IMG/VR virus record: IMGVR_UViG_3300019373_000007 | Location: 32,001 to 96,000 of that record | Strand: one strand, 5' to 3' | Origin: a virus | Taxonomy: Duplodnaviria; Caudoviricetes | Length of the DNA: 64,000 nucleotides | Shown: in pieces, positions 46,470 through 63,152 of the stretch | Layout of the letters: every line of letters starts with the position of its first letter | Position numbering within the stretch: the first letter of the stretch is position 1 | Program-made: the position numbers and the translations under genes | Notes under the pieces: model-generated | Seen by the model: the letters and a program-made list of their open reading frames with translations, nothing else | Database searches by the model: none | Told to the model about the DNA's origin: nothing

Positions 46470-46514
46470 TCGTTATATACATATACAGAACACTCATAGG
46501 AGGAAAACAAAGTA

Positions 46515-47848: not shown

Positions 47849-47850
47849 GA

Positions 47851-48840
47851 ATGGAACAACACTATTGCTTCTCTGGCTCGCTAACACTTTCGATGGCGGA
47901 TGAGCTGGAGCGTCTCATGCATGAAGGCAAGTGGCAGCCGGCAGATGCTCTTGTATCTCAGCTAGATAAGTCCGGAATCGCATCTATGATGTCGCATATG
48001 GAACGAGGAATCATCAAATCATTATTCATCGACTCTGGTGCTTACTCAGTTCATACAGGACGCATCAAAGTAACTAATGACGAAGAGCTGAAAGCTTTTG
48101 TTGATGATTACATCGATTTTGTAAACAGTATTGACGATAAGATCTTAGCTGTTGCTCAGGTTGACCACATTCCAGGTGTATTTAAGCAGCCTAAGAAGCC
48201 CGAGGATTATGTAGAGTCTGTAAAGCTGTCTTGGGATAACTTCTTGTATATGCTTCCGAAGATGAAGAGCCCTGAGAAGCTCTTGTATGTATTTCATCAG
48301 GGTGAATCATTCGATGCACTTCAGCACATCTTGGATTGGAGAGATGAGAATGGAAAGCCACTTCAGTATTTAGGAATATCTCCATCTAACGACCGTCCTG
48401 TAGGCGACAAGGATATCTACTTAAAGGAAGTGTACGACTTCATCGCTAAGTCAAGCAATCCTACGATTCATACTCATCTATTTGGATACACATCACTTCC
48501 TGGATTGCCTAAGTTTCCTTGGTACTCATGCGATAGCGTATCTCATCGACTTCGCGCTGCATATAACAAAGTATTCACTCGAGACTATGGTACAATTTCG
48601 TTCTCGATGACCCGAGAGGCTCGGACAACAGCCGATAAGTGCTTCTTTGAGATAGCTGATGAGGAAACTCTTCGCAAGTTTGATGAATTGCTCGACTATT
48701 ATGGATTCACTCGAGAGCAGATGATGGAGGAGTCCTCTGCTAGAACCGCACTTGATATGTGTGAGGTTCAGCGCTACTGCGCAGAGAATCCTTACGCTCC
48801 AGAGAAGATACTTCGAGCAAGGAAACTATTCAAGATCTAA
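47851..48840 (+). CDS. TGT-fold 7-deazaguanine DNA transglycosylase (DpdA-like)
   Basis: LFIDSGAYS, D.IPG, VFHQGE, YLGIS, HLFG, PWYSCDS; que genes present in same genome. Confidence 0.75.
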   Translation: MEQHYCFSGSLTLSMADELERLMHEGKWQPADALVSQLDKSGIASMMSHMERGIIKSLFIDSGAYSVHTGRIKVTNDEELKAFVDDYIDFVNSIDDKILAVAQVDHIPGVFKQPKKPEDYVESVKLSWDNFLYMLPKMKSPEKLLYVFHQGESFDALQHILDWRDENGKPLQYLGISPSNDRPVGDKDIYLKEVYDFIAKSSNPTIHTHLFGYTSLPGLPKFPWYSCDSVSHRLRAAYNKVFTRDYGTISFSMTREARTTADKCFFEIADEETLRKFDELLDYYGFTREQMMEESSARTALDMCEVQRYCAENPYAPEKILRARKLFKI

Positions 48841-48887
48841 CATGATTTCGCATCAAATCGTTATGATAGCATAAGGAGGGCTGAAAC

Positions 48888-49157
48888 ATGATAGCATTAT
48901 CGTCAGATACTCAGCTGGCCTATCTTGCGTTAGCGTTAGTAGTCGTAAACATTGTCATGATCATATGGCAATCGCACAGAGTCAACTTAGTGAATAGAGA
49001 GATATTCTTAATGAAGTATGCATACGTGATACTTTCTAGAAGCATTGCAGCTATCGAAGAAAAAGATGTATCTACTGAGCAAGCAGTAATGGAGATGCAC
49101 AGCATCGCAAAAGAAGTAGCCGAACTAAAAGATAGGATAGAGAGTTTATCTGCATAG
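48888..49157 (+). CDS. small membrane protein
   Basis: N-terminal TM helix. Confidence 0.6.
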   Translation: MIALSSDTQLAYLALALVVVNIVMIIWQSHRVNLVNREIFLMKYAYVILSRSIAAIEEKDVSTEQAVMEMHSIAKEVAELKDRIESLSA

Positions 49158-49271
49158 CACGCAGATAAGGTAAACAAAATAAGAGGTCTTAGCCAAATTC
49201 CAGGGCTAGGACCTTTTATACTTTCAGAATAGAAATTCGTGATACATCACTATTTATGGAGGTTGTTCAAT

Positions 49272-49538
49272 ATGGCACTCATTCCTAGAGATAAACTAAC
49301 GGAGCTAGTAACTGCTGAACAAGCCAAGAGCACAGCTCAAAGTTCCGCAGCAGATATCCAGCTGCAAGCAGTTGCATACGCAATCAACTGTGCAGCTAAT
49401 ACAGGCGAGACGCGCACAGAGTTCAAAGAGACTATGCTTCCGGAAACAGAATCCGCTCTCGAAGCAAAGGGCTATAAAGTGCAATTCATCGGACAGGCAG
49501 TTGCAACGGATATCGCTCTTATTTCATGGAGTGAGTAA
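49272..49538 (+). CDS. hypothetical protein
   Basis: GGAGG RBS before ATG 49272. Confidence 0.65.
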   Translation: MALIPRDKLTELVTAEQAKSTAQSSAADIQLQAVAYAINCAANTGETRTEFKETMLPETESALEAKGYKVQFIGQAVATDIALISWSE

Positions 49539-49940
49539 ATGGAACTCAATGAGCTGAGAATTGATGCATGTCCGTATCGTGAAATAGGGAAACACACGCC
49601 TGTCCTCAATCATGATGAGATTCCTTATCACTTATTCGTCATGCTGAATCCTGAGATGACTCGAGATTGCACAATGTATGAAGTGCACGAGCTCGACAAA
49701 GAAGATAGCCCAATTATCTTCCCTGACACATTCATGCGAGTGTCTCCTACATGGATCCGTGTAATCACAGATCATCTTAACAAGAAGGTAGGGCAACACA
49801 TTTACCGAATGGCCTTTGTAGACAAGATCACAACAGACACATTCTTCCTGTATTTCTCTTATATCATTCAGGACGATAATCCAGATAAGCCTTACATCTA
49901 TATGAACAGAGAGAAGCCGAATAACGACTTAGAGGAGTAG
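49539..49940 (+). CDS. hypothetical protein
   Basis: ORF track. Confidence 0.7.
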   Translation: MELNELRIDACPYREIGKHTPVLNHDEIPYHLFVMLNPEMTRDCTMYEVHELDKEDSPIIFPDTFMRVSPTWIRVITDHLNKKVGQHIYRMAFVDKITTDTFFLYFSYIIQDDNPDKPYIYMNREKPNNDLEE

Positions 49941-49942
49941 TT

Positions 49943-50665
49943 ATGATAACACAAGTAATATTTGCAAGCAAAGTGTATAAGACAAGTAGACGGAAACAAG
50001 CTATTCAGTCCGCATTGATGCTTCCGAATAATGAAGGACTTGTTCAGCAGCTAGCTGACGCGCTAGACGAGGAATACAGACCACTTGCTCAAGATCCTAA
50101 TGATCCAACTACACAGAAAGCTGATGAAGCAAAAGATCCATTGGATCCAGGCTTAGATGATGATTTCGACGTAGAAAGCAATCTGGTACATGTAAGTGAT
50201 AATCCAGGAGGAAGCGGCCCATTAGGCCCGAAGCCGTCTGCTGATGACATAGACGTAGATGGTCCAGATGGTGATGGTCCTGATATGGAGGATAAGCCAG
50301 ATGGCGATGAACCTGATGTAGAGGAGGGAGTAGACGATAGTGCTCCAGAAGAGCCTGTAGAAGAGTCAACTAAGATCAATGCTTGCTGCGACTTAGACGT
50401 GTCCCTCATCAAAGGCACACTCAACGCTAATGCAGATACAGCAGGTGTCGCTCGAATCGTTACAAAAGAAAAGGAATTATGGATCTACTACAACGACGAC
50501 ATCAACATGAACGATGTGATGATTGACGTAGTTGATTACCTGAATGCATCTGGTCAAACTAATCTCGAATTCAACAGATTAGCACGATCAGACAACGCAA
50601 TGGTATTCATCATAAATGAGCAGAAACAAGAAATCAAGCCGAATGAGGCTGAGGAGGAAAGCTAA
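49943..50665 (+). CDS. acidic low-complexity protein (possible virion internal or scaffold-like)
   Basis: D/E/P-rich middle flanked by VIFAS and KINAC motifs. Confidence 0.65.
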   Translation: MITQVIFASKVYKTSRRKQAIQSALMLPNNEGLVQQLADALDEEYRPLAQDPNDPTTQKADEAKDPLDPGLDDDFDVESNLVHVSDNPGGSGPLGPKPSADDIDVDGPDGDGPDMEDKPDGDEPDVEEGVDDSAPEEPVEESTKINACCDLDVSLIKGTLNANADTAGVARIVTKEKELWIYYNDDINMNDVMIDVVDYLNASGQTNLEFNRLARSDNAMVFIINEQKQEIKPNEAEEES

Positions 50666-50958
50666 TGAACTATGACGTATTAGTATCATTTGCAGGATAT
50701 GTAGGTTCAGAGCAACTGTATTCAGTAGATGCAAATGACGAGGACGAAGCTATCGATCTTGCAATAGATGAGGCCGCAGACGACCTTTCTTCAGAGGAAA
50801 CAATCAACCAAGGAGATGGCGAATGGCTAGTCGAGATCAACTTCGCTGGATTAGCAGGCATTACAGAGTCATACGAAGTATACGGACCTAGTGAGGACGA
50901 CGCTATTGAAGCTGCCCTCGAGTTAGCAAAGGACGATCTTTCAGGGGAGATAAACTAA
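50665..50958 (+). CDS. very acidic protein made of two internal repeats
   Basis: FAG..G....Y.V....ED.AI..A...A.DDLS occurs twice. Confidence 0.7.
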   Translation: MNYDVLVSFAGYVGSEQLYSVDANDEDEAIDLAIDEAADDLSSEETINQGDGEWLVEINFAGLAGITESYEVYGPSEDDAIEAALELAKDDLSGEIN

Positions 50959-51171
50959 TGAAGAGTAGTTAAAGCAAGCTTCGATAAGTATGCAATCGGA
51001 GGATACACAAAGCAGGTCATCAACGCGCTAGTTAAGCACAACGAGCAGATGAAGTCCCTTCGTGAATTTCAACGTCGTCTGGAACAGTTCGGTATCGACG
51101 ACCTCGACAATGATGAGCTTACAGAAGCATACAACATGTACAATGATATACTAACATCTACGGAGGTATAG
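50958..51171 (+). pseudogene. MKR-leader gene with frameshift in the leader
   Basis: ATGAAGAGTAGTTAAAGCAAGC; restoring one AG gives MKRVVKASFDKYAIGG... open to TAG 51171. Confidence 0.65.
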
Positions 51172-51173
51172 TT

Positions 51174-51521
51174 TTGAAGAGAGTAATCAAAGCTTCACAA
51201 GTAGAGGCAGCAGATACGTACAAAGGATATGAAGACATCAACGAGTATGCACGCAATACTGCACGCGACGATATAGAATTCGAGATTCCGCAGATTTGGT
51301 CAATTCAATTCTTCGGAGATAAGAACTACATGATAAGTGACTGTGAAGTCCACGTCATGGCTCGCACATATGCAGAAGCAGAGAAGCAAGCTAAGTTCCT
51401 CTGCAGAGTATGGGATTACGACTTCGACAAGTGCACAATTCAGTACGCTTATCTACCTAGATCCTGGTGGAATAACCACGAAGTGAAGTTAGAAGGCTTC
51501 GTGCAATACGTAGAGGAATAA
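51174..51521 (+). CDS. MKR-leader protein
   Basis: TTG start, MKRVIKASQVEAA. Confidence 0.75.
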   Translation: MKRVIKASQVEAADTYKGYEDINEYARNTARDDIEFEIPQIWSIQFFGDKNYMISDCEVHVMARTYAEAEKQAKFLCRVWDYDFDKCTIQYAYLPRSWWNNHEVKLEGFVQYVEE

Positions 51522-51524
51522 CAT

Positions 51525-51887
51525 ATGAAGCGATACATCAGAAGTTCAAGTGCAGAGTTTACAACATTAGCCGAAGCTAAGCAGATCATAGATTCTATTA
51601 ACATGACCGAAGGACGTCGCAAAGCACTCTACGACATACAGGAGTGGAATGTCAGCCCTGATGACGTCGCTAGACTTGCAGGTAAGTATTCAAGCGGAGC
51701 AATGAGATTCACAGGTTCAGTTCCTGTAGTATCAGTTTCGTACGGTGAAAGCGATAAAGTAGACACTGCATTTATCTTAGAATACGAGGACGGGACTCGA
51801 CGCATGTATGGATGGAAACGCTCTTCTATAGATCCTCAGATAGATGATGGCGTATTTTGTTATTGGGCATACGTCAAGCGAGTTTAA
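51525..51887 (+). CDS. MKR-leader protein
   Basis: MKRYIRSSS. Confidence 0.75.
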   Translation: MKRYIRSSSAEFTTLAEAKQIIDSINMTEGRRKALYDIQEWNVSPDDVARLAGKYSSGAMRFTGSVPVVSVSYGESDKVDTAFILEYEDGTRRMYGWKRSSIDPQIDDGVFCYWAYVKRV

Positions 51888-51901
51888 GGAGACAATTTAT
51901 T

Positions 51902-52225
51902 ATGAAACGAGTAATCAAAGCAAGTTCATCCTCAGCCAAGTCAACATACAGCAGAATACTAGATGCTGTAAGCAAGTTAGACGACCCTAAGGAACCATGG
52001 ACTGACTCAATGGCATTCATCGATGGCCTAGCACGGGACGAGCAAATTGGATTGCATATTTATCATTATGATGACGACTATCAAGCTGTCATTGACTTAG
52101 ATGATGGATCCAGAATCAATTCACCCCGTGTCGGTACTTTTGAAGAAGCTAAGGATGCATTCGGTGAATTAGCTCAGCGATACACACGACAGGCATCTAA
52201 GCAAGGCGACCTTAAGGAGGAGTAG
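51902..52225 (+). CDS. MKR-leader protein
   Basis: MKRVIKASSSS; AAGGAG RBS. Confidence 0.75.
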   Translation: MKRVIKASSSSAKSTYSRILDAVSKLDDPKEPWTDSMAFIDGLARDEQIGLHIYHYDDDYQAVIDLDDGSRINSPRVGTFEEAKDAFGELAQRYTRQASKQGDLKEE

Positions 52226-52228
52226 AAG

Positions 52229-52729
52229 ATGAAGCGAGTAATCAAAGCAAGCGATTCCGAAAAGAAGGGATACGAGTATAGAGGATTCTACATTCACGAG
52301 ACTACCTTCGGATACGATGTATGGCTCAAGGGTAGAAAGGTCTTAGATGATGAATACGCAACTAAAGATGAAGCAGAAGCTGCTGTAGATGAAGTAGTAA
52401 GAGATGAAAATGTAGAATCCGCTACTTCCATTACAGCTCACTTCGCTGCTCCACCTTTCGAGACAAAATACAGTGTTCATTGGATAAGCCCAGAAGGCAA
52501 AGATTGCACATTGGCTGGATCCGATTCTATTGAGGACGTACAGAGCCAAGCAAAGAATCAAGCACGTCAGATTTACAACAGTGCATTTGAAACAGATGAG
52601 CGTAAGATTCACTTCTTAGAGAACATCTACATTGTAGAAGATGAGACCGAGCGTGATGCAATGCTCACTGATACGGAGGACTACATCAATCGACTCATCT
52701 CAAAGATTGAGAGTAGATCTGAGAAATAA
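52229..52729 (+). CDS. MKR-leader protein, apparently two domains joined by VESATSITAH
   Basis: MKRVIKASD. Confidence 0.75.
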   Translation: MKRVIKASDSEKKGYEYRGFYIHETTFGYDVWLKGRKVLDDEYATKDEAEAAVDEVVRDENVESATSITAHFAAPPFETKYSVHWISPEGKDCTLAGSDSIEDVQSQAKNQARQIYNSAFETDERKIHFLENIYIVEDETERDAMLTDTEDYINRLISKIESRSEK

Positions 52730-52747
52730 ACCAGGAGGATAATAAGT

Positions 52748-53131
52748 ATGATTGAATACGCAGGAGACGTTACTCCTAGAGATGTAGCAGATGCTGTAGA
52801 AAGCATGCTATCCAGCAGACGCGCAATCATGGATTCGGGATGTGAAGTAAATGTAACAGTAGGCGATGACATGATTCCACATTTGACTGTGATTGCTCCT
52901 AGGAGTGCACACATGCGTGTGCGCATGGAGACAAGCGACGTCGTTAGCCGAGACGGAATGGAGGGATATGAATTCATTCCTACACTCGAGAGACTCGACC
53001 CTAACGAAATAACAATGCATGAATACGACGCAGTAGATATTCGACGGTTCTATGCAGCTCAAGCTAAAGTAGTAGATGCCCTATATGACATCTACAATCA
53101 GGAGTTCTATCCAGAGCAGTATTTTGATTGA
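52748..53131 (+). CDS. hypothetical protein
   Basis: ORF with RBS; internal VESM motif. Confidence 0.7.
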   Translation: MIEYAGDVTPRDVADAVESMLSSRRAIMDSGCEVNVTVGDDMIPHLTVIAPRSAHMRVRMETSDVVSRDGMEGYEFIPTLERLDPNEITMHEYDAVDIRRFYAAQAKVVDALYDIYNQEFYPEQYFD

Positions 53132-53147
53132 TAAGAGAGGTTGACAC

Positions 53148-53552
53148 ATGAAGAAAGTAGTAGCAGCTCATCTACAAACCGGCAAGCCTGCTGGATACTA
53201 TACATTGGAAGAAGCTATTGACAATCTGCCTGATAGAGATTTCTGGAAGGTATGGAATGCTGCAGCCGATTTCGCACAAGCATCTAATTCTAAATACGTA
53301 TTTCCGAAAGTTTATCCGATGCATCGACTTAACTCTGAATATGAATCACTTGAGCCACTTCAGATACTGGCCTTGACTTCTCACGGACGTTTTCGGACAA
53401 GTGACAAGTACTTCTATGAAGATTATAGCGGATTGCATTCTTTCAACAATGTTGATAGTCATGATTACCCTAGTGTAGATTATGACGAGCTCATCCCAAC
53501 TATCTTGAAGATGAAACGGACAGGTGTCAAATCCATTGATGCTATCTTATAA
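53148..53552 (+). CDS. MKR-like leader protein; related to 55487..55894
   Basis: MKKVVAAH; shared V(Y/F)PM...F...D.Y pattern. Confidence 0.7.
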   Translation: MKKVVAAHLQTGKPAGYYTLEEAIDNLPDRDFWKVWNAAADFAQASNSKYVFPKVYPMHRLNSEYESLEPLQILALTSHGRFRTSDKYFYEDYSGLHSFNNVDSHDYPSVDYDELIPTILKMKRTGVKSIDAIL

Positions 53553-53566
53553 GGAGTGATTGACTA

Positions 53567-53920
53567 ATGAAGAGAAAACTATCTGAATCAGCAATTAAAG
53601 CATCTCAATCAACAGGTAAGGTATCGCTCTATGTAGAGTGGATATCAGGAGACGAGATGGCTAAGGGAAACTTAGTTGTACGCAGCGCTTCTATCGAGCG
53701 TCCTACACTCCTGGAGGCGTTAATGGTTATGCTCAACACAGTAGAGGTTCCAGAAGTTCCTGCTCCTGAAGACGTTAAGGAGATGGATCCATACGACATC
53801 ATTGATCACATTCAATACTACAATGGCTCAGACATTACATGTGATGCAATCATTGTGCTAAAGAACATATCCGACGGCTCTGAGTATATTGACAATAAAC
53901 TCCCTGCGGAGCGTCTGTAG
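53567..53920 (+). CDS. MKR-leader protein
   Basis: MKRKLSESAIKAS. Confidence 0.7.
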   Translation: MKRKLSESAIKASQSTGKVSLYVEWISGDEMAKGNLVVRSASIERPTLLEALMVMLNTVEVPEVPAPEDVKEMDPYDIIDHIQYYNGSDITCDAIIVLKNISDGSEYIDNKLPAERL

Positions 53921-53946
53921 GTGGTACTATCTATAGGAGGATTATT

Positions 53947-54324
53947 ATGAAACGTTACATTAGATCTAACATCGATGACTTCGACGAGTATGACGAATAC
54001 GACGAAGGCTCTGCAAGCGAGATATACAATCAGCTATGTGAGGAGCATAACTTCTTCGACATAGAAAATGCAGTAGCTGATGAGTTAGGTGTTTACTTAG
54101 ATTTCTCAAGTGTCCGTGGTGACGAGGGAGAAGTATTCATCTTTTCAGATGAAGATCATGAAAACTCCGATTCAGATATGTGGATGGGAGACGATGATGC
54201 ACTCATCACAAAGGTATCATTCAGCGACTATGTAGATGGAGTTAAGGAAGCAACTTCCGGTGATGAAGGACAGTGGGAACAGAAGTATAGATCATACTTA
54301 GAGGGGCTCATTGAAGGAGAATAG
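53947..54324 (+). CDS. very acidic MKR-leader protein
   Basis: MKRYIRSN. Confidence 0.75.
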   Translation: MKRYIRSNIDDFDEYDEYDEGSASEIYNQLCEEHNFFDIENAVADELGVYLDFSSVRGDEGEVFIFSDEDHENSDSDMWMGDDDALITKVSFSDYVDGVKEATSGDEGQWEQKYRSYLEGLIEGE

Positions 54325-54326
54325 AT

Positions 54327-54752
54327 ATGAAACGAGTAATCACAGCTAGTGCTGAAATTAAGCCGTGGTCAGCTTCGGAAGAGAAGAGATCTAGAGCGAT
54401 ATCCGATAAGATCAACTCTAAGCTATTCGCAGGAGACGAATTCGAGGAATTCTACGAAACAGACGGAGATGACAATCCAGTAGCTACTTTCAACTTAAGC
54501 ATACCAGGAAGAGCAGACACAGAGATATCTATCTACAGAGAGTATCTTGTTTACGCTCAGAATTGGGATGAAAACGACATTAGAGTCAAGCAAGGCAAGC
54601 GTGTACCTGGAACAACATATTTCTCAGTAGCCGATAACGGAGACGTAATCGACGAAAACTTCGTGGGCTACGCTACAAAAGAAGATGCAATCCACGCAGC
54701 AGAGATCTACATGGATGAATTACGTCGTAGATTTGAGAAATACAATCACTAA
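54327..54752 (+). CDS. MKR-leader protein
   Basis: MKRVITASA. Confidence 0.75.
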   Translation: MKRVITASAEIKPWSASEEKRSRAISDKINSKLFAGDEFEEFYETDGDDNPVATFNLSIPGRADTEISIYREYLVYAQNWDENDIRVKQGKRVPGTTYFSVADNGDVIDENFVGYATKEDAIHAAEIYMDELRRRFEKYNH

Positions 54753-54798
54753 GTTAGCTACAAGCCATGCGCCGGCTTTCTTGCTATAATTTCCTGCC

Positions 54799-54830
54799 AG
54801 TAAAGGTCGTCAGAAATGGCGACTTTTACT
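54799..54830 (+). terminator. intrinsic terminator
   Basis: AGTAAAGGTCGTCA-GAAA-TGGCGACTTTTACT. Confidence 0.65.
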
Positions 54831-54867
54831 ATGTCGAATCGTTATAGTATCTAACAGGAGGTTTATC

Positions 54868-55236
54868 ATGGAGAAGGGAATAGAAATTGCAAGCAATATT
54901 CAGAAAACAGCCGATATCCTAGAATCTGCATTAAAGGGAGGTCAAACAAACGACTTCAACAGCACTGAGATTGATGCTATGGAGAAGGCTGTCGCTATTC
55001 TGCGCAGCATTCGTAAAGTGTACTGCAAAGAAGACAAAGATGAAGAGTTCCCGCTAGAATCATATCCAAGTGTACTTCCTACGCTAGAAGGATTGCATGA
55101 CCTGATAGAGTCTAAGGGCTATGTATTCATATCATGCTACGGAAAAGCTGGATCCACTAAATCAGCGTCGATGTGCTACATGCTAGAAGACGCAAACACA
55201 ATCAACGAGCTCTATAAAACGAAAGGAGACGAGTAG
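54868..55236 (+). CDS. hypothetical protein
   Basis: ORF with AATCGTTAT motif and RBS. Confidence 0.7.
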   Translation: MEKGIEIASNIQKTADILESALKGGQTNDFNSTEIDAMEKAVAILRSIRKVYCKEDKDEEFPLESYPSVLPTLEGLHDLIESKGYVFISCYGKAGSTKSASMCYMLEDANTINELYKTKGDE

Positions 55237-55401
55237 ATGTATCAATGTTTTCATTGTGGACACAACACAGTCATATGGGATTCTGATTTCGACTTCGACG
55301 ATTTCGGATATGAAGGCGAAGGGCTTGTCCATCAGCTACACTGCACTAACTGCGGAGCGGAGATTGAATACAAAATTCCAGACAAACAAGATGAAGAGTA
55401 A
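55237..55401 (+). CDS. small zinc-ribbon protein (54 aa, missed by ORF track)
   Basis: MYQCFHCG...VIWDSDFD...LHCTNCGAEIEY; AAGGAG RBS. Confidence 0.7.
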   Translation: MYQCFHCGHNTVIWDSDFDFDDFGYEGEGLVHQLHCTNCGAEIEYKIPDKQDEE

Positions 55402-55404
55402 CAT

Positions 55405-55440
55405 CGAGCCTGCTAGTTGTTCACTGGCGGGCTTGTTTTA
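55405..55440 (+). terminator. intrinsic terminator
   Basis: GAGCCTGCTAGT-loop-ACTGGCGGGCTT followed by GTTTT. Confidence 0.6.
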
Positions 55441-55486
55441 TGATACAACCTTCAATATCACTATATAGAATCACTATCATAGGAGG

Positions 55487-55894
55487 ATGATTATGAAAAG
55501 AGTAGTAGCTAACGCTATAGATGAAGACCGCGAAGCTAAGCGGATCGCAATTCGCTCTGTATTAGAGAATATGAGCAACGAAGACCTAAGACAGTTCTTC
55601 AATTACATGTGCTATGAGTTCCTGGATGATACTATGACGCAGGTATTTCCGATGACAGATTTTGATGGGCACATGGACATGGCAGAATATTCATATCTCG
55701 ACGTAGCTCAGCTTGGTGCTGATTCTTCACATTTCAGCTCCGAAGATGCTTACTGCCGAATCATGGACGGAGAGCTCCTTAGCGCAGCAAATGTATCTGA
55801 ATTAGTTGATATTGATCAGATAGCAAACACCATCATTGCGCATCCGGGCGAAGATTACGACGACGATGACATCAACGAAATTCTAGGCCACTAG
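55487..55894 (+). CDS. MKR-leader protein
   Basis: (MI)MKRVVANA; ACCTTCAATA upstream. Confidence 0.75.
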   Translation: MIMKRVVANAIDEDREAKRIAIRSVLENMSNEDLRQFFNYMCYEFLDDTMTQVFPMTDFDGHMDMAEYSYLDVAQLGADSSHFSSEDAYCRIMDGELLSAANVSELVDIDQIANTIIAHPGEDYDDDDINEILGH

Positions 55895-55903
55895 GAGGCA
55901 CAT

Positions 55904-56926
55904 ATGAAACGAGTAATCAGCCAATCTGTCCTAGCACAAGGCTGCGAGGTATGCGACCTTACATACAAAGATGTCCTTCAGATGCTGAAACGCGCACTTG
56001 CACGTAATGATGCTGAAACAGTCCGGAAGTTACAGAGGTCTCAATACTACGACGACGCTGTAGAGACTATTCAGTATGCGATGCAAGGAAAGCGGATCCA
56101 TGCTGCTACAATACTCGCAAGCGAAACAAGTGATGTATTTGATGTAACCACTACAGGCGCATCTTATTATGACAACTTCCTGAATGAGAAAGACCTGAAG
56201 TACATGCAGGATGCTAAGAACATGACCGGCTCTATTGAGATGATCACACCTGCCGAGTATTACAAGACGTGCTCTGAGGACATATTCGACGGTAGATCTA
56301 GTGTAGATGACCTGAAGGAGCAGCGTGAGTATTCAAAAGATCCAGATACAGGTGAGCGTCTTGTAGACGAGTATGAAGCAGCTATGAAGCAGGGAGACAA
56401 GTTCCCATTGTGCTATCTCAACTATGCGAGCAGCAACCAGGAAGGTCTGCATCGCATGTATGCTGCCGGCGAAGCCTTTGGTTGGGACGTCAAATTTCCA
56501 GTGTTAGTTATTCGACCATATGATATGGACCGATATAATAAACAACGTCAGAATGAGGCGATCAACGACTATCAACGGTATTCTCTTGAAAACGTTGTAA
56601 AGGATGCAGTAGATGAAGTATCTGATTGGGATGCACCTGTTCCAGATAACGTAGTTGAGATTGTGAAAGAAGCTGTCGAGAGATGCGCTGAGTCTTATGA
56701 GGATGATCCGCATACAATCGAAGTAGACGTCGAGCGTGAAGACGAGGATCACTTGAATGTATGCTTAACTAAGTTCGATGGAATTGACGTTGAGCTCTGT
56801 CGTCCGATATCGTTATGGCTAGATGACATGTATAAGACTACAGAAGACACAGAAGGTCCTGACGACTTAGATGACATTGATGATAACCTCGATGACCTAG
56901 ACATCAGCGACTTGTTGTTCTTATAG
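55904..56926 (+). CDS. MKR-leader protein with ParB/Srx-like domain
   Basis: MKRVISQSVLA; Y...M..GDKFP..L...QEGLHR..AA...PVLVI. Confidence 0.6.
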   Translation: MKRVISQSVLAQGCEVCDLTYKDVLQMLKRALARNDAETVRKLQRSQYYDDAVETIQYAMQGKRIHAATILASETSDVFDVTTTGASYYDNFLNEKDLKYMQDAKNMTGSIEMITPAEYYKTCSEDIFDGRSSVDDLKEQREYSKDPDTGERLVDEYEAAMKQGDKFPLCYLNYASSNQEGLHRMYAAGEAFGWDVKFPVLVIRPYDMDRYNKQRQNEAINDYQRYSLENVVKDAVDEVSDWDAPVPDNVVEIVKEAVERCAESYEDDPHTIEVDVEREDEDHLNVCLTKFDGIDVELCRPISLWLDDMYKTTEDTEGPDDLDDIDDNLDDLDISDLLFL

Positions 56927-56934
56927 GAGGACAT

Positions 56935-57264
56935 ATGAAGCGAGTAATTAAGAGTGCAGAAAGCACAGGTGTTGATCTTTCATTTGTGTTCGACGGCAAG
57001 ACATACTACTTACCTCGGTGGTGTGAGTTCTGGCCTGCAGATGAGGTAGAAAAGGCTAAGCAGTCTGCAATTGATGGAATGAAGGCGCGCCGCGCTAAAT
57101 ACAGCGATGATGATTCAGTAGTTCCTAGCGAAAATGAAGAAGACATTGTCCGCAAGTTGAAAGAAGCTGGATACACTCGGAGCGAGATAGATTCAATCAT
57201 CTACGACATCTCACGAGGGATGACATTAGACGCAGCTATGCAGAATATTAGGGAGGGCTTCTAG
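56935..57264 (+). CDS. MKR-leader protein
   Basis: MKRVIKSA. Confidence 0.75.
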   Translation: MKRVIKSAESTGVDLSFVFDGKTYYLPRWCEFWPADEVEKAKQSAIDGMKARRAKYSDDDSVVPSENEEDIVRKLKEAGYTRSEIDSIIYDISRGMTLDAAMQNIREGF

Positions 57265-57266
57265 CA

Positions 57267-57560
57267 ATGAAGAGAGTAATAAAAGCTTCACAGACAAAGA
57301 TCGAGCCGAACGGAAAAATCCAAGTAGGTATGTGGTGGAGTGTTGACGGTCATCACATGGAGATAACATCTGTAGACGGGGATACTTGTACGCTAACAGA
57401 GGATTGGATTGCAGAAGATAGCGGAAAGGACTGTAGTGAGTCTGACACCTACGGAATAGGCAAAGACGAAGATGGCGTAGAGTATGCATATGCACTCGAC
57501 TATCCAAAGTTCAAGCTGTATTCTACATCTGCTTTCAATTATCCTTACGACTCTTTCTAA
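57267..57560 (+). CDS. MKR-leader protein
   Basis: MKRVIKASQ. Confidence 0.75.
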   Translation: MKRVIKASQTKIEPNGKIQVGMWWSVDGHHMEITSVDGDTCTLTEDWIAEDSGKDCSESDTYGIGKDEDGVEYAYALDYPKFKLYSTSAFNYPYDSF

Positions 57561-57595
57561 AGATCGTTATGTAAGCATCACAGGAGGAAGATAGG

Positions 57596-58141
57596 ATGAA
57601 AACACTTGTTCTTAAACTTGATATCTTGCTTGAGATAGACGAAGTTCCTGTAGCTGCTGCATCAATGGGGAGTGAACCCGAAAACGTACCTGAAGAAATG
57701 AATCAGCTCAATGCAGCTGTAGATAATTTGCTGAAAAGCATGGGCTTTTGTCTGATTGGTCAATACAGCGATAATCCGAGTACACGAAACGGAGGATGGG
57801 CATTCTATAATTCTTACATCATGGTAGACGGGGATAATAAGATCAAGTTAATCGTGGCCATGCGGACTGCTGATCATGCATCTAAGCCGAATATAGCTAG
57901 AAAGAACATCAATCGTATGAAGGGTGAAGTAGATGTCGAATTACGCAACAAGCTTGCTAAAGAAAGATACAATCTTAATAAAGATGACGTAGAGCTGGTC
58001 GATGCCTACTACAAGAAGAATAAGTTGTCAGTAAAGTATTACCTAGGTAAGGGTGATAAGTACGGAGAACCTGTCGATTCTTTAGATAAGTTTATCAGTT
58101 ATCTGAAGGAACGAATTCTTCGCTTGATTAAGAAGCATTAG
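57596..58141 (+). CDS. hypothetical protein; distant paralog of 16779..17294
   Basis: PVAAAS, MRTADH. Confidence 0.7.
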   Translation: MKTLVLKLDILLEIDEVPVAAASMGSEPENVPEEMNQLNAAVDNLLKSMGFCLIGQYSDNPSTRNGGWAFYNSYIMVDGDNKIKLIVAMRTADHASKPNIARKNINRMKGEVDVELRNKLAKERYNLNKDDVELVDAYYKKNKLSVKYYLGKGDKYGEPVDSLDKFISYLKERILRLIKKH

Positions 58142-58153
58142 TGAGGTTACCCT

Positions 58154-58429
58154 ATGAAAAGAATACTAACTACTTCAAAGCAACGTGCAGCACGTCTTAT
58201 AGAAAGGTTTCCAAAAGAAGCAGTTGATCTTGTGAGAGAGTACAAGGATGAAATAGAAAACTTATCTGTTTATCACTTCGACGGGTATAGTTGGGTCAAA
58301 GAAAGCGGAGAAGATGAAATGGATTCAATTGAAGCTTGTTACGTCCGCGAGGGACAAGATGAAGGATTGCTAAATGGATACGAAGATCTAGAGATGATTT
58401 ACGAGGCACTCTGTACATTGGAGGATTAA
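58154..58429 (+). CDS. MKR-leader protein
   Basis: MKRILTTS. Confidence 0.7.
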   Translation: MKRILTTSKQRAARLIERFPKEAVDLVREYKDEIENLSVYHFDGYSWVKESGEDEMDSIEACYVREGQDEGLLNGYEDLEMIYEALCTLED

Positions 58430-58430
58430 C

Positions 58431-58712
58431 ATGAAACGCATTATCAAAGCTAGCGAAGATCTGCTGAAACGTGAGTTTCAGCTAGGCGCAAGATACAAAC
58501 TTTATCGCAAAGATGGGTCAGATGCAGTCCGCACCTTCCGAGTAATCAACTTGTCACAGAAGAATAAGGCGATTAAAGTCAAAGGTGGAATCAACGGCAT
58601 ATTCAAGATCAAGGATTCTAATAAAGGAGACGAGCAGATACTGCTCCTAGGAATGGGAGATCGCAACTACCTTAGCCCATCTTCTAAGGACATTATTATA
58701 GAGGAGGGATAA
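58431..58712 (+). CDS. MKR-leader protein (basic)
   Basis: MKRIIKASE. Confidence 0.75.
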   Translation: MKRIIKASEDLLKREFQLGARYKLYRKDGSDAVRTFRVINLSQKNKAIKVKGGINGIFKIKDSNKGDEQILLLGMGDRNYLSPSSKDIIIEEG

Positions 58713-58713
58713 C

Positions 58714-59079
58714 ATGAAACGAGTAATCAATCGAGAAGCAGCTAAGAAAACTAAGCAAGTAAACAAGGAACTAGCTATTGACATGCTAAAGAGCCTTAGC
58801 GACAGTAAGCGAGCTGCTCTTAGCAAGGCATTGGATAGGACATCTGCTCTTACTAGCACTTACGCATTTCCGTTCGGAACATTACGCATCTACAAAGAGG
58901 GATGGTACTTGACGTGCGAAGGGACCCGGTCTGATTTCAGCGTGTGGTTTGCTGACAATGACGGTGAGCTAGTAGAGGGGCGGAAGCCAAGTGAAAGTAA
59001 ACTTTCATTTCTCTACGAAGAGAGCTTAACTTTCAATGATTTGGGAGAGGACTTCTGGCATTCTATCTCAGGCGAATAG
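58714..59079 (+). CDS. MKR-leader protein
   Basis: MKRVINREAA. Confidence 0.75.
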   Translation: MKRVINREAAKKTKQVNKELAIDMLKSLSDSKRAALSKALDRTSALTSTYAFPFGTLRIYKEGWYLTCEGTRSDFSVWFADNDGELVEGRKPSESKLSFLYEESLTFNDLGEDFWHSISGE

Positions 59080-59086
59080 TGATCCG

Positions 59087-59114
59087 TAGGCGAGACTTAG
59101 TTCTCGCCTATTTC
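59087..59114 (+). terminator. intrinsic terminator closing the MKR array
   Basis: TAGGCGAGA-loop-TCTCGCCTA followed by TTT. Confidence 0.65.
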
Positions 59115-59157
59115 TATGTACGAATCGTTAAGTTGATACAATAGGAGGGAAGTAAAG

Positions 59158-59616
59158 ATGACAACTATATTCACAACACAGTTACTTTCGGATTACTACT
59201 CAGGTAAGATGAGCAAGTACCGAATCGGTACAGATAAGACTAGAGTCTATATTCTAGTTGGAACCGACTTAGTAGTTGTAGTTCCGAAGAAAGACTTCAT
59301 CTTCGATGCACGGAAGCTGTTCAAAGGATGTGGAAGGATTCCAGACACAGGAATCCAGACGTTGAAGGACTGGGCTAAGTCATCACACGAGTTGAGATAT
59401 AGTCACAGCTATCATAGCTTCACGGACTCGAAGCACGGGGGCGTTGATATTTATGCTACACCAGAAGGTGTGTCTTTCAATGTTCTTAGATATTCTCTAA
59501 TTACGTTGACAGCTCATCCTTATTCTGTTAAGGCAGCTGCACATCATGGTCCTATAGTAGTATTTGACAAAGACTCTGGATTAGCTGGGTTCATTGCCTA
59601 TCCGGTCAGGTTATAA
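59158..59616 (+). CDS. hypothetical protein
   Basis: ORF with AATCGTTA motif and RBS. Confidence 0.7.
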   Translation: MTTIFTTQLLSDYYSGKMSKYRIGTDKTRVYILVGTDLVVVVPKKDFIFDARKLFKGCGRIPDTGIQTLKDWAKSSHELRYSHSYHSFTDSKHGGVDIYATPEGVSFNVLRYSLITLTAHPYSVKAAAHHGPIVVFDKDSGLAGFIAYPVRL

Positions 59617-59626
59617 GGAGAACAGT

Positions 59627-60019
59627 ATGCATAATACAACGTACGCAGACACTACTGGCGATGTAAAGCTAGTCATTGACGGCGACAAGCTAGTCGTTAA
59701 CATGTATGTCGGTGATTATGAGTGCAGTCTTGTGGTACTCACTAAAAAGATATTTCAGAAGATGTTGAAGGAATGGGGCAGTACTGAAGTACTAAATGAT
59801 GTTAGCACAGCTAACAGCACAGAGAGGAAGATGCCAGAAGGAGAATTCAACTTCATCTTAGATAAGGTCATGAATCGTCTATGTGATAACCCAGGCCCCT
59901 GCGAGATTTGTCGCAACAGGAACAACGGACACTGCAGCAGGCAGTATGGATTAGACGATATCATCTCAGAGATTAGATACCAAGGGGAGTGTTACTATCA
60001 TGGAGGTCCGAAAGAATGA
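59627..60019 (+). CDS. hypothetical protein
   Basis: AAGGAG RBS before ATG 59627. Confidence 0.6.
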   Translation: MHNTTYADTTGDVKLVIDGDKLVVNMYVGDYECSLVVLTKKIFQKMLKEWGSTEVLNDVSTANSTERKMPEGEFNFILDKVMNRLCDNPGPCEICRNRNNGHCSRQYGLDDIISEIRYQGECYYHGGPKE

Positions 60020-60222
60020 TCTATAAACGAGTAGGCTCAGGGATATTTCCTGTAGTCGTAGATCTAGAAGAGCGCAAGCGACGTGCAGCAGAAGTGCTTC
60101 AGATGCACGCCAACGAAGGCCAGATGCCGGTGTTTCTTACATGCCTTGAGGCTGAGGTGCTGGAGGAAGCACTCGACCTTTATCTTGCAAAGCACGCTGA
60201 AGGAGGACAAAATAATGGATGA
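60016..60222 (+). CDS. hypothetical protein
   Basis: GGAGG RBS, ATGA coupling. Confidence 0.6.
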   Translation: MIYKRVGSGIFPVVVDLEERKRRAAEVLQMHANEGQMPVFLTCLEAEVLEEALDLYLAKHAEGGQNNG

Positions 60223-60499
60223 TGCCCATTTACTAATCAACGGAATGAGATACTGCGAGGCACATAGAAGTTGGGGTGGGAGCTGCTCCGGCTGTCCGCT
60301 TGAAGATGAAATGTGCATCAGCCGCAGTGGTCAGTTGCGTTTCGTTGACGAGAAGCCGAAAAACGAACATGTTGCAGCAATCAACTTCGCTCACTTCGTA
60401 GACCAATTCAAGAACATGGTGAATCAAATCAATTCATGGGCTACGTCTGAGGGATTGATTCCACCAAATCTACCTACAGGAGGTTCAAACGTATCATGA
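60215..60499 (+). CDS. hypothetical Cys-containing protein
   Basis: AGGAGG RBS; C..CPL..C. Confidence 0.6.
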   Translation: MDDAHLLINGMRYCEAHRSWGGSCSGCPLEDEMCISRSGQLRFVDEKPKNEHVAAINFAHFVDQFKNMVNQINSWATSEGLIPPNLPTGGSNVS

Positions 60500-60876
60500 G
60501 TATGACAATGTTAGGCAGCAGACAACATAAGCAAGATGAACCATTCTACTTATATACAGTAGATAGAGACACATTCAGGATTCATGCGCGTAGAATTGAT
60601 TACTATACACGAGTTGGCGCAGGTTCTTACATGTGGAAAGATAACAGCCGATGGAGATACATCTATGAGTTAAAGATAGATACTCTGTCAGGCAATACTA
60701 TGTATTCACGTAATGGTGATGTAGCAGAGATGAGTAAGGTCATCTTGCAAGCATACATCGAAAGAGAACAAGCTGCATCTACTAAACTAGAGAAATGCAA
60801 GCGTGACCTCGCACGTCTGTATCAAGCTAATCCTTACTTAGCAAACAGCAGAGACGCAAGTGTTGAGTGGGACTAG
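60496..60876 (+). CDS. hypothetical protein
   Basis: ORF track. Confidence 0.65.
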   Translation: MSMTMLGSRQHKQDEPFYLYTVDRDTFRIHARRIDYYTRVGAGSYMWKDNSRWRYIYELKIDTLSGNTMYSRNGDVAEMSKVILQAYIEREQAASTKLEKCKRDLARLYQANPYLANSRDASVEWD

Positions 60877-60896
60877 ACGCACATAGGAGGAAGATA

Positions 60897-61215
60897 ATGA
60901 ACAGCAAGAAAATCAGAATCAATTGCGGTCCTGCAGGAGGCGATGCATGCTCTCCTTACTACATCACATTCCCAGATGGCATGACTGCTAGAGAATTCAT
61001 CATGGAGCAGCTAAGCGACGAAAGGGAATGGGGGATACTTCACCATTAAGCCAGAAGAAGACGAAGGATGGGACTGGTTGACACTTGAATACCGATACGG
61101 AAAGGTAATCCACGAAAATCCGAAACCACTCCCTGAGGTTATCTTAGATAGACCTATCAAGAAAGCATCAGGTAGTGGCGGATGGAGTCGATCTGACTTC
61201 ATTCTTGTTGTATAA
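60897..61215 (+). pseudogene. hypothetical phage gene frameshifted in a G5 run near 61030
   Basis: GGDACSPY...EWG continues as YFTI...EYRYG...SGGWSRSDF in another frame. Confidence 0.65.
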
Positions 61216-61236
61216 TAACTAGGAGGAAAACTAAGT

Positions 61237-61635
61237 ATGAAGTATTACTGTTTAGAAATAGCCATGCCCGACGACATGGATCCATCCAACGTGACTGTGA
61301 GCTATCCTATGGACGGAACGACAGTCACAGCATCACTTTCAGATCAAGCTATCGTAGACATAGCCGATGATTTAGGATTCTCAATGTCCATTGAAGAATT
61401 ACCACAGGATGCTGTAGCTATTCTCAAATATGACCCTTACATGGATTATGAGGACATGGAATCTATCCACCGATATGTTGAATCTGCGCTACAGAGAACA
61501 ACGCTTGGATTTGTAGGAGACATAGATCTACTCATTGAAAACGCACCGGAAGCTATCGATATGTTAGAGAAGATGATCGCAAAGATCAAGATTAAACAGG
61601 GAACACCAAACACATCTAAAATAATTCTTTCATAA
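61237..61635 (+). CDS. hypothetical protein
   Basis: ORF with RBS. Confidence 0.7.
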   Translation: MKYYCLEIAMPDDMDPSNVTVSYPMDGTTVTASLSDQAIVDIADDLGFSMSIEELPQDAVAILKYDPYMDYEDMESIHRYVESALQRTTLGFVGDIDLLIENAPEAIDMLEKMIAKIKIKQGTPNTSKIILS

Positions 61636-61737
61636 TCATCACAAATTTAACTGTTCCTTGTAAATTTCACCTTTAATAACTATGTAGTGAAGTAGAAATC
61701 ACTCAGATGCGTGTCAATACGCACAGGTACTTGAGAC

Positions 61738-62070
61738 ATGAAGAAAAAAGAGACCCTAAGCCTAACCGAATCATCTGACTTTCAATACTTACTAGAACTG
61801 ATGATGCCCTTGAATGAAACGCCGGAATTCGCGTGGCTACCTGAGCTATTTGCAGTAGTTGGACACGAGAGTTTGATCAAGTTGTGTAGAGTATGCGGCG
61901 GTGAGACAATCAAGATACCGACACTAAACCAGCTTTCCGCATCCATCGAAGCACTTGAGTGGTTCTACGTCATCTACATTACGAAGAAGAAAAGATTCAA
62001 GAGTGTTCCCGATGAATTGAAACCATTGGTATTGAAGATCAAGGAGATCATTGATGCTGGAAACAATTAA
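61738..62070 (+). CDS. Mor/C-like transcription regulator domain protein
   Basis: LFAVVGHESLIKLCRVCGGETIKIP resembles the Mor dimerisation segment. Confidence 0.5.
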   Translation: MKKKETLSLTESSDFQYLLELMMPLNETPEFAWLPELFAVVGHESLIKLCRVCGGETIKIPTLNQLSASIEALEWFYVIYITKKKRFKSVPDELKPLVLKIKEIIDAGNN

Positions 62071-62248
62071 GGAGCTAATCAAAGAAGCAGAGAATCTAGA
62101 CTTCGGTGAGTACTATCTAGATTACGTGTTATCTGTTCAAGAATCCGCATTAGACGCAGATGTTGAGGAGGCAAGACGTAAGCTAGTGAGTATCTCACAG
62201 ATCAACGAGATGGAAAAGAATATCAACGGGATGATTGATTCCCTTTAA
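62051..62248 (+). CDS. hypothetical protein
   Basis: ORF track. Confidence 0.55.
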   Translation: MMLETIKELIKEAENLDFGEYYLDYVLSVQESALDADVEEARRKLVSISQINEMEKNINGMIDSL

Positions 62249-62260
62249 GGAGCAAGCATC

Positions 62261-62704
62261 ATGTTCAATAGAGATGTAACCTATACAGCGATGGACATAC
62301 AGAAAGCGTATAACAAGATGTATTCAGAATTCCGCAACTACTTGTGGGATATGGATACAATCGTTATGTTAGGCGACATCGAGCTAGAAGCATACAACTT
62401 GTTCATCGACTTAGATAAGTTGAAGAGCTTACTAGAGAGAATGAAGTCACAGATCAGCGGGGCGAAAGCTAAACCTGATGATTTCGAGGATCTCTTAGAG
62501 AAGATAGAAGAGTTCATCGAAGTAGTTGACAAGATGAATGAACAGGGCAATCAGTCGATTCCGATCTTTAACTTAGTCGCAGATCCAGACAAGGGACAGG
62601 AGGATACCGAAGATGAGAATAAAGAAGAAGAACGTGACCGCGTCCGCAGAGTTACAAGAGACTCCGATGGAGGAGCTGAGAGTAACAGACCAGCAGAAGT
62701 ATAG
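62261..62704 (+). CDS. hypothetical protein
   Basis: ORF track. Confidence 0.65.
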   Translation: MFNRDVTYTAMDIQKAYNKMYSEFRNYLWDMDTIVMLGDIELEAYNLFIDLDKLKSLLERMKSQISGAKAKPDDFEDLLEKIEEFIEVVDKMNEQGNQSIPIFNLVADPDKGQEDTEDENKEEERDRVRRVTRDSDGGAESNRPAEV

Positions 62705-62849
62705 TGCTATCATCGATAGCATCAAGGGTGTTATCGCAGCTCTCGCAGATATAGCTGGTGATGATCCAGTAGCAAGAGATTCACTTGCAAACCTGAGTGC
62801 TGTTGCACTTGAGCTACAAACTGCACAGGAAGGTACACAGTTATGCTAA
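62613..62849 (+). CDS. hypothetical protein with basic leader ending VTAS
   Basis: MRIKKKNVTASA; AGGAGG RBS. Confidence 0.6.
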   Translation: MRIKKKNVTASAELQETPMEELRVTDQQKYSAIIDSIKGVIAALADIAGDDPVARDSLANLSAVALELQTAQEGTQLC

Positions 62850-63142: not shown

Positions 63143-63152
63143 TCAAAAACAT

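Follow-up and report, generated by a model that had tools for sequence, protein, structure and literature searches.

Why should some thirty otherwise dissimilar proteins of a single bacteriophage begin with almost the same eight residues? The question is raised by a cluster of genes at positions 50958–59079 of a 64,000-nucleotide stretch of DNA, here called the window, which comprises bases 32001–96000 of the 134,514-bp virus record IMGVR_UViG_3300019373_000007 and in whose numbering all positions are given. The phage is an uncultured gut phage (134 kb). Within the cluster, M-K-R-[V/Y]-[I/V]-K-[A/S]-[S/T] or a variant of it, hereafter called the leader or tag, opens 15 intact genes and one that is frameshifted. 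A first-pass annotation of the same DNA had likened the leader to the signal that loads the internal proteins of phage T4 into the head, the capsid targeting sequence (CTS). Our analyses are consistent with that analogy, and we put at roughly 0.55 the probability that the leader works like the T4 CTS, as a propeptide with a new signal and a newly predicted protease specificity. Judged by sequence, the core of the tag appears to match a motif found repeatedly in the scaffold and in the propeptides of capsid proteins, and comparison with relatives shows the tag to be clade-wide, on largely different cargo. That the leader is cleaved off, that it targets proteins to the head, that these are injected with the DNA and that the cargo has any role, such as in anti-defence or host takeover, are predictions. 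The tag sequence, the predicted protease specificity and the number of carriers would be new; the way of working would be that already known from the T4 CTS.

All 15 starts that the first-pass annotation had named inside the cluster are starts of open reading frames (ORFs) on the + strand, preceded by a Shine-Dalgarno sequence and encoding the residues given for them. A six-frame scan of the window with the regular expression M[KR][KR][VIYL][VIL] returned 16 matches, all of them ATG ORF starts on the + strand, and none in the three frames of the - strand. Across the whole genome the strict pattern stands at the start of 20 of 207 ORFs, and about ten further variant starts were recognised by eye, among them MKIYVRAM, MKRISSAD, MITQVIFAS, MKRKLSESAIKAS, MRRKTIVKPSHKKVMSA and MMKKFTVSPKQRVTAA. 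The frameshifted copy at 50958 is real: the sequence reads ATG AAG AG and then, two bases having been lost from the Arg codon, GTA GTT AAA GCA AGC (RVVKAS...), in a frame that stays open for 75 codons, up to 51171. Contigs from two other runs span this site without insertion or deletion, and so share the frameshifted state. Dispersed copies had also been proposed at five positions, of which 17485, 24203 and 28709 are strict, whereas 7376 (MKRISSAD) and 19063 (MKIYVRAM) qualify only as variants. The leader genes and variants in the window are the following (the site matrix and the promoter-like motifs P1 and P2 are described further on):

7376–8494, + strand: dispersed variant MKRISSAD, 372 residues; closest upstream motif P1
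17485–18141, + strand: dispersed leader gene MKRYVKST, 218 residues; closest upstream motif P1
19063–19560, + strand: dispersed variant MKIYVRAM, 165 residues; P1 motif 28 nt upstream
24203–24496, + strand: dispersed leader gene MKRYVRSS, 97 residues; P2-like ACCTTACATA (24155) 48 nt upstream
28709–29074, + strand: dispersed leader gene MKRVINQD, 121 residues
49943–50665, + strand: acidic protein of 240 residues with the variant N-terminus MITQVIFAS; V-I-F-A-S at residues 5–9, site-matrix score 4.5
50958–51171, + strand: frameshifted leader gene, RVVKAS in the next frame after a 2-base loss
51174–51521, + strand: leader gene (TTG)KRVIKAS with a TTG start, 115 residues
51525–51887, + strand: leader gene MKRYIRSS, 120 residues
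51902–52225, + strand: leader gene MKRVIKAS, 107 residues
52229–52729, + strand: leader gene MKRVIKAS, 166 residues
53148–53552, + strand: weaker leader gene MKKVVAAH, 134 residues
53567–53920, + strand: long-leader gene MKRKLSESAIKAS, 117 residues; A-I-K-A then S at residues 9–13, with the putative cut before S
53947–54324, + strand: leader gene MKRYIRSN, 125 residues, very acidic
54327–54752, + strand: leader gene MKRVITAS, 141 residues
55493–55894, + strand: leader gene MKRVVANA, 133 residues
55904–56926, + strand: leader gene MKRVISQSVLA, 340 residues
56935–57264, + strand: leader gene MKRVIKSA, 109 residues
57267–57560, + strand: leader gene MKRVIKAS, 97 residues; its homolog in the relative L043 also has the leader
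58154–58429, + strand: leader gene MKRILTTS, 91 residues, without a clear [VI]-x-A site
58431–58712, + strand: leader gene MKRIIKAS, 93 residues, the only basic cargo (isoelectric point, pI, 9.9)
58714–59079, + strand: leader gene MKRVINRE, 121 residues

In a sequence logo of 37 proteins from this phage and two relatives, the successive positions hold M in 37, K in 36, R in 34, V or Y in 20 and 13, I or V in 27 and 7, K in 20, A or S in 16 and 11, and S or T in 18 and 5 proteins; conservation ends at residue 8. The DNA follows the same boundaries, mean pairwise nucleotide identity among the 20 genes being 0.25 at positions -40 to -17, 0.35 across the Shine-Dalgarno sequence, 0.60 over codons 1–8 and 0.26 over codons 9–16. 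In the same three phages Arg3 is encoded by CGA (16), AGA (11), CGC (4) and CGT (3), and the leader Ser is drawn from both boxes, TCN and AGY. Because the Arg3 and Ser codons come from different boxes and DNA identity is at background outside codons 1–8, selection acts on the peptide, as had been argued earlier from synonymous variation.

Nor does the remainder of these proteins betray a common origin: when the first 12 residues were removed, an all-against-all BLASTP of the leader proteins within the genome gave no pair at E<0.01, which agrees with the earlier statement that they are unrelated past about eight residues. Since distant members of two cargo families, described below, lack it, the leader is a portable module; the cargo proteins are not detectable paralogs. 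The cargo proteins range from 53 to 372 residues. They had been called very acidic, and acidic they are (median pI 4.86), but the remaining proteome is much alike (5.13), and pI<5.5 is found in 14 of the 20 leader proteins compared to 63% of the others, so that acidity is not distinctive. Across the 37 leaders, residues 9–14 are predominantly polar or acidic, and on this composition, no predictor having been run, the hydrophobic core of a Sec, Tat or lipoprotein signal is absent. Literature searches, which left subscription journals largely outside, found no paper containing the strings MKRVIK, MKRYIK, MKRYIR or longer forms, and topical searches of the same reach returned only work on phages T4 and P1, phiKZ-like phages and herpesviruses.

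The machinery with which such a leader might interact lies in the head operon. The capsid protein matches the Pfam family Gp23 (E 3.8e-17, match from residue 76), and the gene preceding it encodes a 458-residue protein in which a protease domain is followed by a long coiled coil. Homologs of this protease number more than 1250 in metagenomes; among 30 that were sampled, 27 match Peptidase_S77 (PF03420, the T4 gp21 family; best E 1.6e-11), and H56 and S111 are invariant in all 30. The protease of this phage gave no Pfam match at E ≤ 0.01 when searched alone. A model of its protease domain (mean predicted local distance difference test score, pLDDT, 69.6) retrieved T4 gp21 (5jbl) as the sole match at E ≤ 0.001 (E 2e-4, template modelling score 0.60), herpesvirus protease being absent at that threshold, and the best matches among well-annotated phages are cyanophage gp21 genes. 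Searched as a profile against solved structures, the protease-scaffold alignment returned coiled-coil matches only. The T4 internal-protein analogy thus suits the machinery of the phage, which has a Gp23 capsid protein and a protease that is gp21-like by both family and fold.

The specificity of that protease would nonetheless have to differ from the T4 pattern. In the excerpts of PMC5694885, the proteases of T4, phiKZ-like phages and SPN3US are described as cutting after glutamate, and this cannot hold here because the capsid-protein propeptide of this phage, the first 67 residues, contains no Glu. A Glu-type cut (x-x-E) just past the leader, prompted by the E found at residues 9–13, was dropped for the same reason. 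What recurs is a different short motif. Among 30 protease-scaffold homologs of 48–55% identity, invariant or near-invariant positions form three islands in an otherwise variable scaffold: I152-A153-A154-S155-x-D157 immediately after the protease domain, T350-V351 (ETVTAS) in the middle, and T407-A408-x-T410 (PVTAST) approximately 50 residues from the C-terminus. Four capsid-protein propeptides together hold 13 [VI]-x-A-[STGAN] sites compared to 2.2 ± 1.4 in shuffled sequences, with 0 of 2000 shuffles reaching 13, and the last [VI]-x-A site of the propeptide adjoins ATNTSNI, the start of the conserved mature part of the capsid protein. Many protease homologs also carry an N-terminal extension with I-K-A or I-K-S.

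A site matrix built solely from the scaffold and capsid-protein sites, and scored on the first 20 residues of each protein, gave a median of 2.45 for leader proteins and -0.8 for other ORFs (Mann-Whitney p = 3.4e-4). When 485 ORFs were pooled, the position of the Ala in these sites showed maxima at residue 7 (22 cases) and residue 12 (9), and the long leaders of this genome and its relatives end in the same [VI]-x-A. The first-pass annotation had guessed a [VI]-x-[AS] site; the recurrence of this motif in the protease-scaffold fusion and its enrichment in capsid-protein propeptides favour that guess, and suggest that the protease cuts after Ala, which in the leader would be after I-K-A and before S. 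A complex prediction for protease residues 1–148 with residues 1–40 of the 57267 protein scored 0.01, and speaks neither for nor against binding.

How the tag is distributed beyond this genome was seen in relatives. Two of these, G001 (129,489 bp) and G002 (a 26,971-bp fragment), were found with a degenerate DNA pattern for the tag, whose matches are strand-specific (9 reverse and 0 forward in G001, 6 reverse and 0 forward in G002, 0 in controls); their capsid proteins are 62–63% identical to that of this phage. Five further relatives were obtained via the protease gene, and the tag is also present in L041 and L043, the two of those five that are rich in small genes. A homolog in the seven relative sequences was found for 2 of 21 cargo proteins, and in both cases the homolog is tagged. 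The tag is kept across relatives differing in codon usage and G+C content. In L041, five of nine leader proteins have a leader-bearing paralog. L041 and L043 possess in addition a longer leader class, with a basic start followed by FTKYPSNY or F[TR]VD...KK and ending in [VI]-x-A, which is borne by many small proteins inside the head module (L041 2628–8429; L043 4047–7746, 15433 and 16887). Cultured phages offered little for comparison: a megablast of the leader cluster against cultured phage records gave no match, the capsid protein reaches at most 26.6% identity to any phage-collection record, and a 41-kb stretch of Bacillus phage vB_BceM-HSE3, the nearest cultured phage by capsid protein (26% identity), contains no such leader.

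Two cargo families show how the leader comes and goes. Closer members of the 28709 family start MKR[YVLW][IVL].., and distant members (P0047–P0053) bear unrelated N-termini before the same conserved core. In the 55904 family the strict tag stands at the start of 85 of 120 homologs; the remainder have mostly one-residue or long variants, a handful begin directly at the conserved core, and two have a leaderless N-domain followed by an internal ...YVKAST or ...YISAST. The 55904 protein itself contains a second, internal leader-like stretch, KRIHAATILAS (approximately residues 62–72), a core in which QEGLHRM is invariant, and an acidic tail. Its AlphaFold2 model (mean pLDDT 88.4) is disordered at residues 1–8 and 63–72. 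Foldseek returned nothing for this model at E ≤ 0.001; with VIA-align, sulfiredoxin, Osa and ParB-like chains reached Z 4.1–5.9 and gp25-like chains Z 6.4–6.5, all under the reliable level, and Atlas matches score below 0.9. As weak leads only, modelling points to a middle domain like ParB or sulfiredoxin and to a C-terminal domain like gp25. Profile searches of the payloads, which the first-pass annotation had proposed, were unrewarding: no Pfam match above cut-off was obtained for the leader proteins of this phage, G001 or G002, and PHROG matches were to families of unknown function only, so that no cargo protein has an informative match.

Expression context provides a further association with the head. 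Two promoter-like motifs recur in + strand intergenic DNA, P1 (AATCGTTAWGT) at 48857, 54838, 57563 and 59124, and P2 (ACCTT-N-[TA]ATA) at 24155, 49211, 55448 and 61669. P1 often has a hairpin upstream and is conserved in the relatives too, while P2 precedes the opening gene of the head operon in eight of eight genomes or fragments examined, in seven of them clearly. The nearest upstream motif is P2 for 20 and P1 for none of the structural-module genes, a class to which some genes were assigned by position only; the corresponding counts are 3 and 21 for replication and nucleotide genes, 13 and 6 for short-leader genes, 7 and 3 for variant or long-leader genes, and 27 and 105 for other genes. 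Leader genes, then, mostly share their promoter motif with the structural operons. Around the cluster, the arrangement is as follows:

49211–49220, + strand: P2 motif ACCTTTTATA, heading the block 49272–54752 with the first leader sub-cluster
54838–54846, + strand: P1 motif ATCGTTATA, before two leaderless genes at 54868–55236 and 55237–55401
55405–55435, + strand: terminator-like hairpin of 13 pairs that closes the P1 unit
55448–55457, + strand: P2 motif ACCTTCAATA, 45 nt upstream of the second leader sub-cluster
57563–57571, + strand: P1 motif before a leaderless gene at 57596–58141
59086–59111, + strand: terminator-like hairpin that ends the cluster, with the next P1 motif at 59124

The first gene past the cluster (59158) has its own P1 site. 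In L041 and L043, leader genes stand between head genes, directly behind P2; in this phage, a leader-bearing gene of 70 residues lies in the head operon two genes before the protease, and L040 and L047 have, in the corresponding place, genes with leader-like N-termini. Promoters of the sigma-70 type in 46000–64000 number 38 compared to 40.6 expected.

From these observations the following mechanism can be proposed. The leader would consist of two overlapping parts, an invariant M-K-R-[V/Y]-[I/V] head and a [V/I]-x-[A/S] site followed by S or T, the latter being the putative cleavage site of the phage's own prohead protease of the gp21 (S77) family. Structural genes and leader genes would be expressed together, and the leader would direct its protein, in the manner of the T4 CTS, into the core of the prohead during assembly; the protease would then cut off seven residues (10–17 in the long forms), and the mature protein would be retained in the head, from which it could exit with the DNA.

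The resemblance to T4 would lie in a short N-terminal propeptide common to unrelated, fast-turning-over small proteins, in a genome that has both a gp23-type capsid protein and a gp21-type protease. According to the excerpted text of PMC9026906, a T4 internal protein can be packaged on the strength of its first ten residues alone, distinct residues of the tag serve targeting and processing, and T4-related phages have other proteins with CTS-like starts; the tag proposed here would likewise combine a targeting part with a processing part. The differences are equally plain. The leader sequence is unlike the T4 tag, the cut predicted here falls after Ala or Ser and that of T4 after Glu, the tag has 7–8 residues as opposed to 10, each genome has some 20–30 carriers as opposed to a handful, the protease and the scaffold form one fusion protein, and the present system is known from sequence alone. 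The [L/I]-x-E site of T4 was looked for: no conserved Glu is present at leader positions 1–8 of the 37 proteins. The leader is thus outside the sequence family of the T4 CTS, since the Glu site that defines it was not found.

Giant phages of the phiKZ type (SPN3US, phiKZ and 201phi2-1) are comparable in that many of the proteins packaged in their heads have N-terminal propeptides, which a gp21-like protease takes off at a short motif, with additional sites within the propeptides, as far as the excerpts of PMC5694885 and PMC10052503 extend; in these excerpts their proteases differ in cutting after Glu (A-x-E or S/A/G-x-E). As a rule these propeptides are long, and they do not constitute one common tag, and the present genome is of only 134 kb.

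A second comparison is with herpesviruses. Phage prohead proteases are reportedly homologous to the herpesvirus protease, and we know of no herpesvirus that loads a tagged set of accessory proteins in such a way. In the assemblin (UL26-type) arrangement the protease domain is likewise N-terminal to a fused scaffold, and conserved sites occur at the junction (here IAAS) and towards the C-terminus (here VTAS), all of the form hydrophobic-x-A and then S or T, although cleavage at the phage sites is a prediction. In assemblin the junction site serves release and the one towards the C-terminus serves maturation; for pseudorabies virus, the excerpts of PMC4498786 give YLQA-T and VQA-S. The present phage differs in infecting bacteria, and the fold search described above gave, at E ≤ 0.001, T4 gp21 and no herpesvirus protease. 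In staphylococcal phage 80alpha, the host protease Prp removes an L27-like N-terminal motif from the capsid and scaffold proteins. There too, a dedicated protease removes a short common N-terminal motif from the head proteins of a phage with a Gram-positive host; the differences are that the enzyme belongs to the host, the motif is another one, and only capsid and scaffold proteins are known to bear it, with no accessory protein set.

Several observations weigh against a CTS-like role. The residue before Ala is K or R in leaders compared to T, A, M or N in the scaffold and capsid sites, and for that reason canonical leaders reach only 2.5–4.5 bits with the independent matrix; Ser replaces Ala at residue 7 in 11 of 37 leaders, and MKRILTTS, MKRVINRE and MKRVINQD have no clear site. 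The motif [VI]-x-A-[ST] is short, and its conservation in the scaffold could be structural. Inside proteins, the complete V-I-K-A-S word shows no enrichment (13 occurrences, 23.5 ± 4.9 in shuffles), and the strict N-terminal position, together with the invariant M-K-R, could point to a function that needs a free N-terminus. The best match to the protease in cultured phages is a Streptococcus phage at 24% identity, and no cultured close relative exists. Head loading of 10–14% of all gene products would far exceed the few internal proteins of T4. Most leader genes lie behind the structural-type P2, but nine of 29 leader or variant genes are nearest to the early/middle-type P1, four of these being dispersed copies among replication and nucleotide genes, and the link to late expression is incomplete on that account. 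Furthermore, 13 leader genes lie in two operons, so that the promoter counts are not independent; P2 is a candidate late motif by its association with structural genes only; and leader genes of G001, in which the two clean motifs of the other genomes were not resolved, have AT-rich TATATAAT-like boxes upstream instead of P2.

These difficulties lend themselves to other explanations. One is that the leader is a processing signal and nothing more, its carriers being transient accessories of the prohead core or scaffold, or pro-proteins activated by the cut, that are neither retained nor injected. The cleavage-motif evidence fits this equally well, and the scaffold, too, is apparently cleaved at several positions and presumably expelled; however, the near-complete turnover of cargo between relatives with 62–63% identical capsid proteins (2 of 21 shared) makes the cargo unlike assembly components and more like accessory genes, and several cargo proteins are folded and multi-domain, as the confident 55904 model indicates, so that we regard this explanation as unlikely. 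It is also improbable, in our judgement, that the leader addresses some other reader of free N-termini, for instance a host protease or unfoldase in timed degradation, a chaperonin or a localisation factor, and resembles the protease motif by coincidence. The N-terminus of a T4 head protein reportedly directs proteins to GroEL, and a reader of this kind would account for a tag placed exactly at residue 1 in 37 proteins with M-K-R invariant, for a full word that is not reused internally, and for the nine genes behind P1. Yet long leaders, and internal copies after a leaderless N-domain, keep [VI]-x-A away from residue 1, the same short motif is enriched in capsid-protein propeptides, and the head operons of relatives contain leader genes.

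The two other alternatives are poorly supported, and we give each a very small chance. Were the leader a signal at the level of RNA, a translation-initiation or recombination cassette with the peptide as a by-product, one might cite the frequency of Lys at codon 2 and of A-rich early codons among well-translated genes, and the identity of 0.48 at third positions of codons 2–8. Against this stand the four codons from two boxes at Arg3 and the use of both TCN and AGY for Ser, the return of DNA identity to background just upstream of the Shine-Dalgarno sequence and from codon 9, the persistence of the tag in relatives with other codon usage and G+C content, and its absence from the most abundant structural proteins, the capsid protein opening with MVVRAS. 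An old paralogous family of which only the N-terminus is still recognisable would explain why the genes are clustered, similar in size and on one strand, and why paralogs are frequent among the L041 leader proteins (5 of 9). It is contradicted by the lack of any pair in the genome alike past residue 12 at E<0.01, by the untagged members of two cargo families, and by cargo lengths of 53 to 372 residues.

If the leader is indeed a CTS-like propeptide, it would be a marker, readable from sequence, of proteins that are carried in the head and delivered first by an uncultured clade, and hence a direct route to candidate counter-defence or takeover proteins in gut phages of unknown host. The specificity of the gp21 protease family would not be fixed on glutamate, phage and herpesvirus capsid maturation would be closer in the shape of the site and in gene architecture, and a very short packaging tag would become available for engineering phages of Gram-positive-like hosts, comparable to uses of the T4 tag. 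The broadest version of this proposal, in which a large clade of uncultured gut phages uses a portable tag of 7–8 residues to load 20–30 fast-exchanged accessory proteins, a tenth or more of the genes, into the capsid for co-injection and its protease has switched from Glu to Ala, with a site shape and a protease-scaffold fusion like those of herpesviruses, is possible but doubtful. The tag also identifies true start codons in these genomes, which is of use in gene calling.

Elsewhere in the window, the + strand holds nearly all genes, with strong AGGAGG-type ribosome-binding sites in front. The replication genes comprise a DnaB-like helicase, a family A polymerase, clamp-loader subunits and a RecA-like protein; the tail, baseplate and head genes are in the remainder of the genome, outside the window. 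The segment 49150–59140 is present at ≥99% identity, from the same phage, in several animal faecal metagenome runs from different studies. Two libraries with this stretch are labelled metatranscriptomic (RNA), and they are available as contigs only, in which neither transcription nor transcript ends are visible. A gene set for 7-deazaguanine (queuosine-precursor) synthesis occupies 18452–24148 and suggests that the DNA is modified; it is interspersed with a dCMP-deaminase-like gene:

18452–18961: QueF-like
19649–20413: QueC
21546–21983: PTPS/QueD
21984–22475: dCMP-deaminase-like
22890–23558: radical-SAM QueE-like
23564–24148: GTP cyclohydrolase I

Mobile elements are frequent. The family A DNA polymerase (32867–37003) contains an intein and consists of two ORFs with a GIY-YIG endonuclease gene (35120–35872) between them, and a clamp-loader subunit gene (40181–42529) also bears an intein. 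HNH/NUMOD genes are located at 20406–21482, 37202–37965 and 46835–47848, and a TnpB-like gene (OrfB_IS605 with a Cas12f-like TNB domain) lies within the phage genome at 27381–28646. Rfam matched a tRNA (46.4 bits) at 15114–15200, a stretch without good ORFs; ARAGORN found no tRNA in the window. A DUF5662 protein is represented by two neighbouring ORFs, 1825–2106 (profile positions 4–64) and 2142–2378 (108–154), and the gene at 1825–2378 may be split or interrupted. Finally, a 54-residue ORF at 29088–29252 is similar to the C-terminal 48 residues of RtcB RNA ligase (E 1.8e-4, under the Pfam cut-off), and may be the remnant of such a gene.

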